From positions 1 through 39,483 of IMG/VR virus record IMGVR_UViG_2563366928_000012: a stretch of 39,483 nt of DNA; one strand, 5' to 3'. The DNA comes from a virus. Its lineage: Duplodnaviria > Heunggongvirae > Uroviricota > Caudoviricetes. Below the pieces are notes generated by a model. The model worked only from the letters and a program-made list of their open reading frames with translations. It was not told the origin of the DNA and searched no databases. Positions 28,423-35,294 of the stretch are shown here, piece after piece (the stretch's first letter is position 1; the number at the start of each line of letters is the position of its first letter). The position numbers and the translations under genes are program-made.

Positions 28423-29283
28423 TCACCTGTCGAAAAACACGTAGCCAGTTTTCGATACGGTGATTGCGGATGATGGTTTGGATTGTGGTTGAATAGTTTC
28501 TGGCTTCTCGTCGTTCCAGCGTTGACCGTTCAGGTAGCTCGATGGTAACAACCTGTCGAATCCGAACTGCTTACCATTCCTGCATGCGATGTCTTCTGCC
28601 AGCATCGTGGCAAACTCGCTTGCCGTACCCCTGGTAGTTTTACGCCATTCCCTGAACTGTGTTCTGAATGCCGAAGCTGCGTTTTTCTTCCCGGCCTTCC
28701 GCATGCCTGCACACCAGAATATTTCCTCGAATGCCTTGTCGGTTTCTTCGTGACGGTCATGTGATTTTTCACACTCCGTCCGAACACTTTCGGACATAGT
28801 GTTTTTATTATTTCTTTTTTCTTTTGTAATAGTTTCTTTTGTGTGTCCCTGTTTTGGTGACAGCGCTGTCACCGTTTTGGTGACACTTTTTGTCACCAAT
28901 GCAGTGACATTATCACCAGAGTAGTGACACCCTTCGTTTTGCCATTCCTCGATGTTCTTGTTAGGCCCGATTTGCTGGCCTTCGCGAAGGATAACCTTCA
29001 TCGCGATAAGCTCATTCTTGGCCTTGTTTACCTTCTGTCTTGGCAGCCTGGTAATTTGAGCTAACTGACTATCAGAGATGCGATCCATATTTTTACCGTA
29101 GCCGTATGTTTTACGGCATATGGCGTGGGCAACCTTGCTCTGATTTTTCGTTAAATCTGCGCCGATAAGCTCTTCATACAGGGCATTTGCAAGACGGGTA
29201 TAACCATCTTCAACTTCTGCCACACGACGCTCCACAGGCCGTTGTGAAGGCCTTAAATGTGTTACGGTTGCAAGATTACTCAT
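28423..29283 (-). CDS. Replication initiator, lambda O-like N-terminal domain
   Basis: [47 protein letters not shown] resembles lambda O N-terminal domain; iteron array embedded in the coding sequence. Confidence 0.75.
28800..28930. repeat. Origin of replication: GGTGACA-type iterons plus adjacent AT-rich tract
   Basis: TTTTGGTGACAGCGCTGTCACCGTTTTGGTGACACTTTTTGTCACCAATGCAGTGACATTATCACCAGAGTAGTGACACCC next to a T-rich stretch, inside the O-like gene. Confidence 0.7.
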
Positions 29284-29454: not shown

Positions 29455-29754
29455 TCAGAACTCCATCTGGATTTGTTCAGAACGCTCGGTCTTGCACACC
29501 GGGCGTTTTTTATTGGTGATTCCATCAAGCGCATACTTAAAAGCCCTGCTAATCGGACTGATGTCTGATGCCATTCCGAAAGCACACAAGACCGAAGCAA
29601 TAAATCTCCAGTCCGTTCTGCTTATCTTCGATTCATGACAGCCAATCATCTTTGCCAGACCGCGCTGGGTAAGCGTTGACAGGTTGATGAGTAAATCCGT
29701 TTCTGCGCGATCAACGTCGCGCTGGGATAGTTTGCTGTAACTTGTTTGTGTCAT
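29455..29754 (-). CDS. cII: CII transcriptional activator
   Basis: C-terminus [20 protein letters not shown] matches recalled lambda CII C-terminus. Confidence 0.8.
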
Positions 29755-29840
29755 TTCTTAATATTTCCAATAGTGAATAGTTAGTTGAAAGGTATGCGTG
29801 GAAACGCATATGGCCTTAGTTGGTCAGATATCTTGGGACT

Positions 29841-29885
29841 CGCTTTTCAGCGACGTAGGACGAATGTCCGTTGTTACAAAGAGCG
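29841..29885 (-). promoter_or_regulatory. nutR-like site (boxA plus boxB)
   Basis: Minus strand: boxA CGCTCTTTG (29877-29885), then boxB hairpin TCGC-TGAAAA-GCGA (29841-29852). Confidence 0.55.
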
Positions 29886-29895
29886 GATCCGCTTA

Positions 29896-30111
29896 TTAAG
29901 CGGCTTTGTGTTCCGGCGGGAACACGTCATCAAGACTGACTTTTGCGCCTAACTTGTTTAGGCATGCAACAAGAGCACGGCATGTTTTAAGGTCTGGGAA
30001 GCGACGACCAGATTCCCAATGTCCGATAGCTCCCTGTGTGCATCCAACTGCCTTAGCAAGTGTTGTTTGAGAGATATTCAGTGACTCTCGATATTTTCGT
30101 AGGTTGCTCAT
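29896..30111 (-). CDS. cro: Cro-like HTH repressor
   Basis: 71 aa with HTH (ISQTTLAKAVGCTQGAIGHWESG), divergent from cI. Confidence 0.75.
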   Translation of the reverse strand: MSNLRKYRESLNISQTTLAKAVGCTQGAIGHWESGRRFPDLKTCRALVACLNKLGAKVSLDDVFPPEHKAA

Positions 30112-30220
30112 ATGCCCTCCATAGTAAACACGAATAAAAATACAATATGTACTTTACGAATACAAGTAAAAATACACATTGTGCATGGATGGTTCCAGTA
30201 CAAAGCGTAATAATAAGGAC
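30112..30220. promoter_or_regulatory. OR region (PR/PRM with candidate operators)
   Basis: Intergenic between cro and cI; contains ATACAATATGTACTTT and TACAAAGCGT, words shared with the putative OL region (32400-32470). Confidence 0.45.
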
Positions 30221-30880
30221 ATGAAAATGAAATGGTATGAACTGGCTAGATCCAGAATGAAAGAGCTCGGCATAACTCAAGAGAAGTTAGCCGAAGAGCT
30301 AGGTATGACGCAGGGTGGGATTGGACACTGGTTGCGCGGATCTCGTCATCCATCTCTTAGTGATATTGGTGTGGTGTTTAAATACCTTGGTATTGATAAC
30401 ATATCATTCAACCACGACGGGACATTTTCACCTGTTGGCGAATACTCATCGGCCCCAGTTAAAAAACAATATGAGTACCCTGTTTTTTCTCATGTTCAGG
30501 CTGGGATGTTCTCTCCAGAACTCAGAACCTTTACCAAAGGCGATGCGGAGAGATTGGTAAGCACAACCAAAAAAGCCAGTGACTCTGCATTCTGGCTTGA
30601 GGTTGAAGGTAACTCAATGACCGCACCAACAGGTTCCAAACCCAGCTTTCCTGACGGGATGTTAATTCTGGTTGACCCTGAGCAAGCTGTTGAGCCCGGC
30701 GATTTCTGCATAGCCAGACTTGGTGGTGATGAATTTACCTTCAAGAAACTGATCAGGGATAGCGGTCAGGTGTTTCTACAGCCACTAAACCCACAATACC
30801 CAATGATCCCATGCAATGAGAGTTGTTCCGTTGTGGGGAAAGTTATCGCCAGCCAATGGCCTGAAGAGACGTTTGGGTGA
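30221..30880 (+). CDS. cI: CI repressor: non-lambda N-terminal HTH fused to lambda-type CI C-terminal (S24/LexA-like) domain
   Basis: C-terminal about 150 aa from [28 protein letters not shown] to PEETFG match recalled lambda CI almost residue for residue; N-terminal HTH differs. Confidence 0.85.
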
Positions 30881-30919
30881 TGAAACCACTTTTATCTACA
30901 ATTTACAGGGCGGTAAACA

Positions 30920-31477
30920 TTGGCAAAAATAGATGATTATCAGCCAAGCCAAGTAGAAGTTGATAAAGTACTTTATTGTAAAAAAATAGTTAACTTTTCT
31001 GGCGTTAAATGGAAACAGAAACCAAGTCGCTCTGATATGTGGCTACAAGCTCATATCATCCCCTTGGATGAGGATTGTATACCTATACAAGGGCTAAAGT
31101 TTGAACTGAAATGGAAACCAGATCAGGATTCAGAACCTGATGACCCGATTTCTTACCCTAAAATAAATATTATTGCTTTCTATCATAACAAGAGGGTTTT
31201 CGCGGTAGATACCTATCACTTTGACAAACACACGAATAGTTACAAGGTCGATCATCCGAAGTACCAAGATATCATTTACGGTGCTCACTACCATGTATAC
31301 TATGAAGAAGCTGGATACTATAGTGATAGAATAGCGTTTCCAATCGAAGATGACATAAACCCAGATGACCTGGTAGGGTATTGGAATTACTTCTGTAAAC
31401 ATCTGAACATAACTTACTCTGGGAGAATACCTTTACCGCTTGAAGATGAGTCGGGGCAAATGGGGTTTGGAATATGA
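30920..31477 (+). CDS. Hypothetical protein A of AT-rich two-gene operon downstream of cI (candidate exclusion/defence gene)
   Basis: 185 aa, Tyr/His/Asp-rich, no recognised domain; possible D...E-x-K motif (PLDED...KFELK). Stop overlaps next gene start (ATGA). Confidence 0.55.
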   Translation: MAKIDDYQPSQVEVDKVLYCKKIVNFSGVKWKQKPSRSDMWLQAHIIPLDEDCIPIQGLKFELKWKPDQDSEPDDPISYPKINIIAFYHNKRVFAVDTYHFDKHTNSYKVDHPKYQDIIYGAHYHVYYEEAGYYSDRIAFPIEDDINPDDLVGYWNYFCKHLNITYSGRIPLPLEDESGQMGFGI

Positions 31478-32226
31478 TGTGCTCAACAGTGATCTCACAA
31501 CTAGGTTTCGAATGCCATCCAATAGGCAAGACCTTGAGAATTATCAGTCCATTCACTTACTGTGATGATGGAGAGCATGTCGGTGCCTTTATCCGTGAAG
31601 TCAATGGTAGGTATTTAGTTAGTGACAGATGCGATGCCTTAATGAATATGGAGGCAAGAGGGATCTCGCTTACCAAAAAACGACTTGATGAGATACGACA
31701 ATTACTGCTTAAAGAAGGCGCAGAACTCAATGCTCGAGGAGAAATCATTGCTTGGGCAACAGAAAAGGATGTCGGTGCGATTACATCGAACATAATTAGA
31801 GCTGGTATACTCGCATCAACTTTGTCGTTAGACTGGTATCAGCCAGTTCAAGCTGAAAAGTTTGAAAGTATGGTTATTGATTATCTATATCACACAGAGC
31901 TTAGAGACGCACTTTCTCTTCGTGAAAACGTATATGGCTTGAGTGGACATCAAATTACCGTCCCTGTAACAATAAAAACCGACATACCTAAATACGTTTT
32001 TACATCAAGCGTGAAACACGGAGGAAGCTGGAATAGTGCTTACTCATTGCTTGGGAAACTAATTGATCTTAAAGCTTCAAGTGAGGAGTATAACAACAGA
32101 TTTGTTGTTATAGACAGCGAAGCAATTGGTGATCAAATGCAACAACTCTCCTTACTCTTCCATGAATCAAGCCAAGTTCTACCATTCTCCAAAAGAGAGA
32201 CTTGGATTAAGAGACTTGCAGCATAA
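31474..32226 (+). CDS. Hypothetical protein B of AT-rich two-gene operon downstream of cI (candidate exclusion/defence gene)
   Basis: 250 aa, no recognised motif; translationally coupled to gene A; followed by an intrinsic terminator. Confidence 0.55.
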   Translation: MMCSTVISQLGFECHPIGKTLRIISPFTYCDDGEHVGAFIREVNGRYLVSDRCDALMNMEARGISLTKKRLDEIRQLLLKEGAELNARGEIIAWATEKDVGAITSNIIRAGILASTLSLDWYQPVQAEKFESMVIDYLYHTELRDALSLRENVYGLSGHQITVPVTIKTDIPKYVFTSSVKHGGSWNSAYSLLGKLIDLKASSEEYNNRFVVIDSEAIGDQMQQLSLLFHESSQVLPFSKRETWIKRLAA

Positions 32227-32231
32227 TACAA

Positions 32232-32258
32232 CCCGGCCTCAGCGCCGGGTTTTCTTTG
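32232..32258 (+). terminator. Intrinsic terminator ending the cI operon (tIMM-like)
   Basis: CCCGGC-CTCA-GCGCCGGG then TTTTCTTT. Confidence 0.6.
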
Positions 32259-32399
32259 CCTCACGTTCGCCCACCTAAAAACACATAACCAATTATATTT
32301 ATTGAAAAATAAATAGATGCAACCCACTAAACCACGCAATTCTGATCTCTCCTTACATCGCCGAGACAATACATCCACGCTAAAAAACAACACTATTAA

Positions 32400-32475
32400 A
32401 TACAAAGCGTTATAAAAAACCACGCCAACTTACAACAAATTGTATTGATCTTGTAAAGTACATATCGTACTATTT
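32400..32475 (+). promoter_or_regulatory. PL/OL-like region
   Basis: Contains TACAAAGCGT and AAAGTACATAT (reverse complement of an OR word) and TACAA-N4-TTGTA inverted repeat, upstream of nutL and N. Confidence 0.4.
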
Positions 32476-32519
32476 AACCGTCAGCAGGACGCTGGAAGCC
32501 AAATGGAACAGACTGGCAG

Positions 32520-32565
32520 GCTCTTTAAACAACGTCGACTCTCGACTACGTGGCTGAAAAGCCAG
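32520..32565 (+). promoter_or_regulatory. nutL-like site (boxA plus boxB)
   Basis: boxA GCTCTTTAA (32520-32528), then boxB hairpin TGGC-TGAAAA-GCCA (32551-32564), upstream of N. Confidence 0.55.
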
Positions 32566-32662
32566 ATCACCCAACCACATAAGCTGTGGGATGCAATGCC
32601 GAAGCAACCGTCTCAGGAGGAGCTTCGAGATTGCATCGCCAAAGTTTATTCGGGAGGAATCC

Positions 32663-32935
32663 ATGTCCAGAAAAACAGAATTTAAAGGCACCGCAGCTTC
32701 TCGCCGTAGAGCTCGTCGCGCAAATCTGCAAAGTCAGGAGGCGATCAGCTCCGACAAGCTACACAGGCCAACCCCTTCACGAGTGGTCTTGCAATGCAAG
32801 CGCAAACCAGCAATGAGAGCAGAAGTAATAACACTGACAACGTTGACCAGAAAATATGAAGGTTCAACTTGTCTTCCGAACGTAGCTCTTTACGCGGCAG
32901 GCTACCGGAAATCCAAACAACTGACAGCAAGATGA
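32663..32935 (+). CDS. N: Antiterminator N (P22 gp24-like)
   Basis: Arg-rich motif GTAASRRRARRANLQ near N-terminus; C-terminus NVALYAAGYRKSKQLTAR matches recalled P22 N tail; GGAGG RBS. Confidence 0.75.
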   Translation: MSRKTEFKGTAASRRRARRANLQSQEAISSDKLHRPTPSRVVLQCKRKPAMRAEVITLTTLTRKYEGSTCLPNVALYAAGYRKSKQLTAR

Positions 32936-32993
32936 CTTGTGTTGGTCGCCAGAAAATGAAATTAGGCAGCAAACCACTTATTTGAGGTGAGAT

Positions 32994-33080
32994 ATGGAAG
33001 AAGAATTTGAAGAGTTCGAAGAGCATCCTCAGGATGTGATGGAACAATACCAGGACTATCCGTATGACTACGACTATTGA
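32994..33080 (+). CDS. Candidate 28-aa highly acidic aromatic micro-protein
   Basis: GAGGTGA RBS then ATG; encodes MEEEFEEFEEHPQDVMEQYQDYPYDYDY; below the ORF-track length cutoff. Confidence 0.35.
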   Translation: MEEEFEEFEEHPQDVMEQYQDYPYDYDY

Positions 33081-33150
33081 TAAGAATCAATGGTGTGGAC
33101 AATACGAACGACGACAATGATTGCCAGAGAACTTGGTAAACAGAACAACA

Positions 33151-33178
33151 AGGCTGCCTGATGGTGGCCTTTATTTTT
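33151..33178 (+). terminator. Candidate weak intrinsic terminator
   Basis: AGGCTGCC-TGAT-GGTGGCCT (two wobble pairs) then TTATTTTTGG. Confidence 0.3.
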
Positions 33179-33203
33179 GGCATAAACAACAGAGGCGAAG
33201 ACG

Positions 33204-33398
33204 TTGACAGTTGGAAAGTCATATTCAACTAAAAACGGAAAAACATTTAGTTGTGAAAAAGATATTGGAGAAATAGACACTATCTTTCCATTTGGTGGGT
33301 GGGTATACAATTCTGATGGAAGCAAAGACAGATTTGCATATTACACCAGAGGAGGTGCGTATAAACTAACCAAATCAGAATATGATTTAATTATTTAG
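33204..33398 (+). CDS. Small AT-rich hypothetical protein
   Basis: 64 aa ORF; apparent TTG start after AGAGG. Confidence 0.3.
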   Translation: MTVGKSYSTKNGKTFSCEKDIGEIDTIFPFGGWVYNSDGSKDRFAYYTRGGAYKLTKSEYDLII

Positions 33399-34029: not shown

Positions 34030-34710
34030 ATGGGAACTGCGACATTAATACTCGGTGAATCTGGCACCGGAAAATCAACCAGCATGAGAAATATCAATCC
34101 AGAGGAAGCAATACTTATAAAACCAATAGGCAAGCCGCTTCCATTTAAATCAAAAGACTGGCTGGCATGGGATGCCAGAGCAAAAAAAGGAACCGTAGTT
34201 ACCACTGACAAATGGGACGTAATAGTTGCCGTAATTAAGCGTGCTCACGAATACGGGAAAAGAATCGTTATTGTTGATGACTTCCAGTATGTGATGAGCA
34301 ATGAGTTTATGCGCCGCTCAGAAGAAAAATCGTTTGATAAATTTACTGAGATAGGCCGCCACGCATGGGAGGTGATTAAGGCTGCACAGGATGCACCTGA
34401 TGACCTGAGAGTCTATTTTCTTGCACACACCGAAGAAACCCCTATGGGGCGTGTGAAAATGAAGACTATCGGCAAAATGCTGGACGAGAAAATCACTGTC
34501 GAAGGCATGTTTACTATAGTTCTTCGCACCCTTACCCGCGATGACCAGTTCTTTTTCACCACGAAAAACAACGGTGCAGACACTGTAAAATCCCCAATGG
34601 GAATGTTTGATTCTAATGAGATTGATAACGATCTCTCTTTCGTCGATGCCACTGTTTGTGATTACTACGGCATCAATAATGTTCATCAAATTAAGGAAAA
34701 CGCCGCATGA
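34030..34710 (+). CDS. P-loop ATPase, Sak4-like (RecA-fold single-strand annealing/recombination protein)
   Basis: 226 aa; Walker A GESGTGKST at residues 9-17, Walker B-like IVIVDD; position equals the lambda exo/bet recombination slot. Confidence 0.5.
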   Translation: MGTATLILGESGTGKSTSMRNINPEEAILIKPIGKPLPFKSKDWLAWDARAKKGTVVTTDKWDVIVAVIKRAHEYGKRIVIVDDFQYVMSNEFMRRSEEKSFDKFTEIGRHAWEVIKAAQDAPDDLRVYFLAHTEETPMGRVKMKTIGKMLDEKITVEGMFTIVLRTLTRDDQFFFTTKNNGADTVKSPMGMFDSNEIDNDLSFVDATVCDYYGINNVHQIKENAA

Positions 34711-35294
34711 GCAACGTGATTTTTACTTATAACGAAGAAGCAGCACTGACCGCAGGGCAAGGTGGTTTTATTAACGAAACTGGTGCTCATATCATTACCA
34801 TTACTGAAGCAGAACTAAAGCAATCAGAAAAAGGAGCCAAATTTATTGAGTTTTCTGGCGAATCTGACGACGGACGTAAAATCCAATATCTTAGCGTCTG
34901 TGTTCAGAAAAATGACGGAACGGAAAACAAATTTGGCGCAAATGTCGTTCACGCCATGATGGGGTGTGCCGGGATTGGACAATTAACGCAACATATGGTT
35001 TCCGCCAGTAAATTTGTTGCTCCTGAGTTTCATGGAAAGAAAATCGGGTTAGTGCTCCAGAAAGTATTAACCACAAACAAAAAGACTGGCGCAGACAGCT
35101 ACCAGATGGAAATACGCATCCCGTTTATTGCACAAACAGGTCAAACCCTTAAAGAAAAGGCGGAAGGCAAGCAACCAGAAACTATCGCCAACATGGTTGC
35201 CAGCCTCAAAGATAAAGACAATCGCTCTAAAAACGTAAGCCATAATCATGCAGATGATTATGGTTACAGCCAGAACGATTACCCTCCTTTCTGA
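34707..35294 (+). CDS. Sak4-associated protein, possible ssDNA-binding protein with acidic C-terminal tail
   Basis: 195 aa ending ADDYGYSQNDYPPF, reminiscent of SSB C-terminal tips; overlaps ATPase stop. Confidence 0.35.
   Translation: MSNVIFTYNEEAALTAGQGGFINETGAHIITITEAELKQSEKGAKFIEFSGESDDGRKIQYLSVCVQKNDGTENKFGANVVHAMMGCAGIGQLTQHMVSASKFVAPEFHGKKIGLVLQKVLTTNKKTGADSYQMEIRIPFIAQTGQTLKEKAEGKQPETIANMVASLKDKDNRSKNVSHNHADDYGYSQNDYPPF

Follow-up and report, generated by a model that had tools for sequence, protein, structure and literature searches.

Between the repressor gene and the next transcription terminator of a lambdoid Escherichia coli phage lie two overlapping genes, here called A and B, which occupy the very place where phage lambda carries rexA and rexB. 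The phage is represented by the 39,483 nucleotides of IMG/VR virus record IMGVR_UViG_2563366928_000012 (hereafter the window), and we report that the A/B cassette is a swapped-in, compositionally foreign module in its rexAB slot. It is modular and mobile cargo, with cassette and repressor exchanging independently across loci. We give somewhat better than an even chance to the prediction that the pair is an anti-phage defence module of two proteins, acting by superinfection exclusion or abortive infection; this reading is drawn from the calls made for both proteins by DefensePredictor, from a weak match to the candidate defence system PDC-M24 and from a conserved position in the repressor operon. 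The kind of locus is well known, defence cargo being a regular tenant of the region downstream of the repressor in temperate phages, and A and B themselves belong to no characterised system.

The limits of the cassette can be placed to the base. When positions 29701-33300 of the window were compared by BLASTN with lambda (in E. coli NCM3722) and with phages 2G7b, 2B8 and Stx2a_WGPS8, homology of 93-98% to all four was lost at 30878-30882, which is the cI stop, and regained at 32229/32230, where the stem of a terminator with 90-93% identity to the one that follows lambda rexB begins. The content of the matching interval in lambda is rexA-rexB, and in sister phages whose cI and N are almost the same the slot is filled in other ways: 2B8 carries an NYN-domain protein, 2G7b a protein of 283 residues (locus L002, 1302-2153) and Stx2a_WGPS8 one of 173 residues (L004, 1704-2225), the last two without a Pfam or PADLOC match. 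The 173-residue protein is common in Stx phages, and both it and its 283-residue counterpart are further uncharacterised candidates from the same hotspot between cI and terminator. A preliminary description of this DNA, made from its letters alone, had assigned the pair to the rexAB slot and had proposed a comparison of the cI-to-N interval among related phages as a sign of cargo swapping; the junctions, exact at the cI stop and at the homologue of the rexB terminator, bear out the assignment, and different cargo behind near-identical cI genes bears out the swapping.

In base composition, too, the cassette stands apart. Its GC content of 0.393 compares with 0.470 for the whole window and 0.504 at 9-20 kb (the structural genes lie at about 0.50), and is the minimum of all 1347-nt windows in the phage (mean 0.470, standard deviation 0.032); at third codon positions the values fall to 0.355 in A and 0.339 in B. 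This whole-phage computation upholds the earlier suggestion of acquired cargo. The contrast first put forward, of one-third G+C against about half, was real as a shift but overdrawn in size, the actual figures being 0.39 against 0.47-0.50, with one third reached only at third codon positions.

The cassette is borne by an operon whose first gene is cI (30185-30880, plus strand), a gene of 696 nt annotated as such, with matches to HTH_3 (2e-10) and Peptidase_S24 (1.3e-28) and a C-terminal half that is 93% identical to lambda cI at the DNA level. A spacer of 39 nt (30881-30919, plus strand) forms the left cassette junction and leads to gene A (30920-31477, plus strand), which encodes 185 residues from a TTG start, with the ribosome-binding-like motif AGGGCGG read from the sequence 5-6 nt upstream; the MAK N-terminus set by this start is invariant among homologues, and the same 558-nt coding sequence is given in both GenBank and RefSeq. 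Gene B (31474-32226, plus strand; 250 residues) overlaps A by the four letters ATGA at 31474-31477, which hold both its ATG and the stop codon of A. The operon ends at an intrinsic terminator detected by a terminator scan (32230-32258, plus strand), the right cassette junction, whose hairpin (32230-32251) begins 4 nt past the stop of B and consists of an 8-bp stem with six G-C pairs followed by a T-rich tail, TTCTTTGCCT. The same scan of the cI-A interval returned no terminator-like site. An internal promoter for A was considered and rejected, the five promoter-like sites found showing no excess over the 5.9 expected in shuffled sequence. The layout set out in the preliminary description was thereby confirmed in each of its parts: two coupled frames directly after cI at the coordinates given and with the ATGA overlap, co-oriented with cI and separated from it by no terminator, and a strong hairpin at the end of the pair. 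We infer that cI, A and B are transcribed from PRM in the lysogen. In lambda, the repressor operon that includes rexAB is expressed in the lysogenic state.

The association with the repressor extends far beyond the window. In the 80 IMG/VR viral-contig loci, B directly follows A without exception (80/80), with an overlap of 4 or 13 nt, and a repressor homologue is the next upstream gene on the same strand in 74 (73 recognised by homology and one by inspection); in the remaining six a single small gene intervenes between the repressor gene and A. The proteins encoded upstream of A fall into 35 clusters at 90% identity and 12 at 50%, and a terminator-like hairpin follows within 90 nt of B in 77 of the 80. 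The extra small gene is seen in L062-L065 and L067 (3052-3393 in L062) and in L098 (3127-3369), and encodes either a 113-residue protein of PHROG 3467 or an 80-residue protein that appears hydrophobic by eye; such inserted genes may be accessory components or separate morons. Prophages of Salmonella, Klebsiella, Aeromonas and Thorsellia repeat the arrangement, with A and then B, usually overlapping, after a repressor in nearly every context. Even relatives of A at only 21-25% identity keep to it, the pair standing behind S24-type repressors in L024, L025 and L028; L021, L023 and L026, at the same distance, hold the pair on short contigs.

The cassette is also widespread. At an identity of at least 99% it is present in 239 of 5426 complete E. 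coli genomes, pathogens included, and homologues of B occur in Salmonella, Yersinia, Erwinia, Serratia, Photorhabdus, Providencia, Pectobacterium, Klebsiella, Atlantibacter, Edwardsiella, Aeromonas and Thorsellia. Its mobility is plainest where closely related phages differ. Locus L046 (767-2826) encodes a cI that is 97% identical to that of lambda and has an identical copy of the A/B cassette where lambda has rexAB, and L049 has the identical cassette behind an unrelated repressor (25.6% identity). Conversely, L104 has the cI of the window (99.6%) with an A of 40.5% and a B of 51.8% identity. Two observations accompany these comparisons: L046-L048 are all phages of lambda immunity in which an identical A/B cassette replaces rexAB, and L104 and L108 (2714-4768) show two deeply diverged versions of A/B on one immunity backbone. 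Diverged alleles behind the same cI may be the product of diversifying selection or of a difference in the phages targeted.

Protein B is soluble and is built from two domains, a DUF1828 domain at about residues 1-121 and a DUF1829-like domain at about 128-249. The former scores 33.5 bits over residues 26-110 against a Pfam gathering cut-off of 22, and is matched by all 20 of 20 homologues; the protein as a whole matches PHROG 1960, and aligns from residue 2 to 248 with positions 4-253 of the 256-position PADLOC profile PDC-M24B at E 6.1e-10, a profile that has no curated threshold. An AlphaFold2 model built with 20 homologues (pLDDT 81) also has two domains. Its fold relatives include restriction endonucleases and CRISPR ancillary nucleases, namely Can2 (10.3), NgoMIV (9.8), BstEII (9.8), PspGI (9.6) and Cfr10I (7.8); these agree with the C-terminal half and its alpha-beta-beta-beta-alpha-beta order. 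In this model the C-terminal domain has a restriction-endonuclease-like core of that topology and the N-terminal DUF1828 domain a fold like that of secretion chaperones and YbjN, the fold relatives having been assigned to each domain from lengths and topology. Independent support for the domain assignment comes from HHpred results in table S5 of the DefensePredictor study, where a near-identical B (WP_000968518.1) matches DUF1828 at 25-114 with a probability of 99.5 and DUF1829, of the PDDEXK clan, at 155-241 with 98.8 (PMC13092281).

Conservation in B was traced through an alignment that reaches the partners of A relatives only 21-25% identical to the A of the window. Invariant across it are S25, P26, D32, G33, D51, R70, E90 and W121 in the N-terminal part and F130, L138, G155, S157, G158, P164 and D198 in the C-terminal part. 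The canonical D...(D/E)xK signature is absent: alignment and model leave the second and third strands without a conserved acid or lysine, the position of the 'PD' reads G-x-S-G-H/I/R, and K173 and K181 are variable. Having lost these residues, B is less likely to be a standard nuclease than a binder of DNA or of a ligand. Searches with sequence profiles against the PDB gave nothing under E 0.2 for either protein, and NCBIfam has no family for A or for B.

Protein A is soluble and acidic, matches PHROG 2017 and belongs to a small family, with 20 representatives at 50% identity from a profile search of 1.84 billion proteins and 29 proteins from a word-indexed search with a wider alignment. Down to members at 21% identity, K22, W31, R92, D97, N106, G121, H123, H125, F158 and P173 are invariant and H104 nearly so. 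In the structural model H104/N106 and H123/H125 alternate on adjacent beta-strands, and the resulting Asp/His/Asn/His/His cluster suggests a metal site. Relationships to named families are faint. Pfam DUF6978 is matched at 22 bits, under its cut-off of 29.6 and in the C-terminal part only, and by 5 of 15 A relatives at E <= 0.01, all weakly; PDC-M24A is matched weakly at E 4.8e-4 over residues 104-163 only, each of its two models being matched by 3 of 15 family members. Neither of the two A-family searches reached bona fide members of DUF6978, and the link from A to DUF6978 and PDC-M24A therefore stays weak. No relative of A could be recognised by fold; a fold search of BFVD with A found no match at E <= 0.001.

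It had been proposed that a D...E-x-K pattern in A might mark a PD-(D/E)xK nuclease fold. That idea has to be given up, since the only such element, E62-L-K64, is not conserved among homologues and A has no such fold; the restriction-endonuclease-like fold sits instead in the C-terminal half of B. A was likewise rejected as an HNH nuclease, on the misfit of the H104-x-N106...H123 spacing and the absence of any beta-beta-alpha-metal match.

How does the pair compare with systems already described? The likeness to lambda RexAB is one of place and plan: the same locus to the base, the same strand as cI, a homologous terminator, and in both cases a two-gene unit within the repressor operon. It does not extend to the proteins. 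PADLOC models that score the lambda proteins at 9e-110 and 9e-61 found no match in A or B, and BLASTP of both against RexA gave E > 10. RexB crosses the membrane several times, whereas neither A nor B contains a hydrophobic segment, the maximal 19-residue Kyte-Doolittle hydropathy being 0.45 in A and 1.19 in B against 2.39 in RexB. A RexB-like membrane mechanism was accordingly discarded for want of transmembrane segments, and depolarisation of the membrane by an ion channel is not how A and B work. Repressor-downstream placement, as in A/B, and expression in the lysogen are reported for the defence genes of Pseudomonas putida RexABpp (PMC12894663) and for BstA (PMC8585504). Both consist of other proteins, BstA being a single one, and PADLOC found no match to BstA in A or B.

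The PADLOC systems labelled PDC are untested phage defence candidates, put forward through guilt-by-embedding in BREX, DISARM or type I restriction-modification loci, and PDC-M24 consists of two genes, FAM_00129>>FAM_00065 (Payne et al. 2024 preprint). It resembles A/B in having a small first protein (profile of 148 residues) followed by a second of about 255, and in the full-length match to B. It is very distant, however, and differs in its surroundings: among the A/B loci examined, nearly all of them prophage repressor operons, no BREX, DISARM or type I restriction-modification context was found. The validated system DS-6/HipAD offers another parallel, its DUF1829-bearing protein DS-6B having been proposed as a non-catalytic, antitoxin-like, DNA-binding partner of a HipA-like kinase (PMC13092281). 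Both are pairs in which one partner fuses a DUF1829-like domain to another domain of unknown function, but that other domain is DUF3037 in DS-6B and DUF1828 in B, and the effector of DS-6 is a HipA-family kinase, to which A is unrelated. From Can2 and Card1, in which a sensor is joined to a PD-(D/E)xK nuclease, B is set apart by an N-terminal domain that is not CARF and by its missing canonical catalytic residues, and A/B has no link to cyclic-oligoadenylate signalling.

This is not the first sighting of the two genes. In tables S5 and S10 of DefensePredictor (Science 2026, PMC13092281) the label 'Predicted novel defense gene' is given to A (WP_001062368.1) as well as to B (WP_000968517.1 and WP_000968518.1), with mean log-odds of about 4.9-6.3 for A and B. 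The word uncharacterised, as used in the preliminary description, is thus still apt with regard to experiment but overlooks that both genes had already been flagged computationally. In the open full texts searched, which did not include the ECOR-prophage study by Brenes and Laub (2025) from which the PhiR phages come, these domains and accessions appear in no defence context besides DefensePredictor. What is gained over that screen is anatomical and evolutionary context, together with residues that can be tested.

Several considerations weigh against a role in defence. Neither accession is present among the 94 tested units in table S6 of DefensePredictor, 45% of the units that were tested were validated (PMC13092281), and we found no experiment on defence by A/B in the open literature. 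With the nuclease residues of B unconserved, neither protein has an established effector activity, and the matches of A to PDC-M24A and DUF6978 are weak and confined to its last 60 residues. Finally, obligate residence in a repressor operon fits the control of lysogeny or the maintenance of the prophage equally well.

If A/B does serve in defence, the following course of events may be envisaged. The two proteins would be expressed in the lysogen as the tail of the repressor operon, in the order cI-A-B-terminator, analogous in function to RexAB, and in coupled amounts, as the overlap of stop and start implies. Soluble and cytoplasmic, they would probably work as a complex. The DUF1828 domain of B, with the fold of partner-binding secretion chaperones and YbjN, might bind A or a phage protein, and the DUF1829 domain, as a degenerate nuclease fold, might bind DNA or a ligand. 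A would then be a metal-dependent effector restrained by B until infection, a model based on the invariant polar cluster in A, on the lack of canonical catalytic residues in B and on the precedent of DS-6B. We infer complex formation, the defence phenotype and the identity of the effector, and regard this division of labour, with B as sensor or regulator and A as effector, as a tentative proposal that falls well short of an even chance. Bolder still, and very unlikely in our estimation, is the notion of a new class of defence, in which A would found a new fold with a metal centre made of its histidine cluster and the mechanism would include the obligate position behind the repressor gene, A/B serving as a guard of the immunity operon and not just as a lodger at a promoter active in the lysogen. 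In such a version, a superinfecting phage that shuts off or bypasses transcription of the repressor operon would shift the balance of A to B, and the module would fire.

The roles may also be reversed within a defence system, B being an active, divergent nuclease of the PD-(D/E)xK fold that cleaves phage DNA on entry or during replication and is restrained or targeted by its DUF1828 domain, and A a sensor or specificity subunit. Matches to the fold of the NgoMIV family, and the invariance of D198 on the helix that follows strand three, keep this variant of the defence model in view, but we consider it unlikely, for there is no conserved acid or lysine at the D...(D/E)xK position and the strongest invariant polar cluster is found in A. 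Decidedly unlikely, in turn, is a module for lysogeny control or prophage maintenance, in which A/B would tune the repressor switch or act as an addiction pair resembling a toxin and its antitoxin, giving no protection from other phages. Such a role would suit the residence of the pair in the repressor operon in the contexts examined, with repressors from 12 clusters at 50% identity, as it would the coupled two-protein design, which recalls toxin-antitoxin pairs, and the proposal that the DUF1829-bearing DS-6B is an antitoxin and DNA binder; lambda RexA, moreover, acts on the switch according to the report on the P. putida RexAB (PMC12894663). Yet the identical cassette lies behind unrelated repressors and operators (25.6%), which makes a partner tied to one repressor less likely; sister phages that share the cI have quite other cargo, or nothing of this sort, and are presumably viable, so that A/B is no core part of the switch; and the distant PDC-M24 relatives were defined from BREX, DISARM and type I restriction-modification cassettes, not from prophages.

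Least probable of all, and very unlikely in itself, is that the pair is a lysogenic-conversion moron unrelated to phages, which happens to use a slot expressed in the lysogen and contributes, for example, to host fitness, stress or virulence. Stx phages carry other morons in the cI-N slot, the near-identical pair is shared by hundreds of E. coli genomes with pathogens among them, and an activity has been demonstrated for neither A nor B, all of which would suit a moron. Against it stand the cytoplasmic character of both proteins, which have neither a signal peptide-like nor a transmembrane segment, the flags raised for both by defence predictors, and the nuclease-like and chaperone-like sensor folds, which are typical of defence proteins.

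Around the cassette, the region from cI to N is 99.6% identical to that of phages ev207, ev017, PhiR57_1 and PhiR63_2. To the left, and all on the minus strand, lie an O-like replication gene (28423-29283), cII (29455-29754) and a cro-like repressor gene (29896-30111), whose 71-residue helix-turn-helix product matches PHROG transcriptional repressors and is annotated as Cro in PhiR57_1; divergent from cI, it completes the immunity switch that is the context of the cassette. The conserved right flank of the slot is the antiterminator gene N (32591-32935, plus strand; Pfam N_peptide, 2.3e-32). Lambda and PhiR57_1 carry sieB on the opposite strand right after N, but at 32936-33200 of the window sieB is absent and N is directly followed by a match to the lambda ral region (32969-33193), as in 2B8. 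This post-N site is a second variable slot for exclusion genes, adjoining the first. After the ral-like sequence, in the early-left region, an open reading frame encoding 64 residues (33204-33398) has a full-length match to PHROG 15499 (1e-47). Further on, at 34030-35294 (plus strand), PHROG matches identify a Sak4-like P-loop annealase (226 residues, phrog_2872, 4e-108) whose gene overlaps that of a single-stranded DNA-binding protein, SSB (195 residues, phrog_743, 3e-66); this module replaces the exo/bet of lambda, and PhiR57_1, which shares the cI-N region, has Gam/Bet.

Should A/B indeed protect lysogens, it would be a widespread addition to the immunity modules encoded by prophages in E. 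coli, Salmonella, Klebsiella, Yersinia, Aeromonas and others, and would give a function to DUF1828 and DUF1829 as well as to a protein of no known fold. The linkage to the repressor makes the lambdoid slot between cI and terminator a hotspot defined to the base, from which further systems can be mined. Cassettes of this kind would influence the range of temperate and therapeutic phages able to infect E. coli lysogens, the hosts of Stx phages included.

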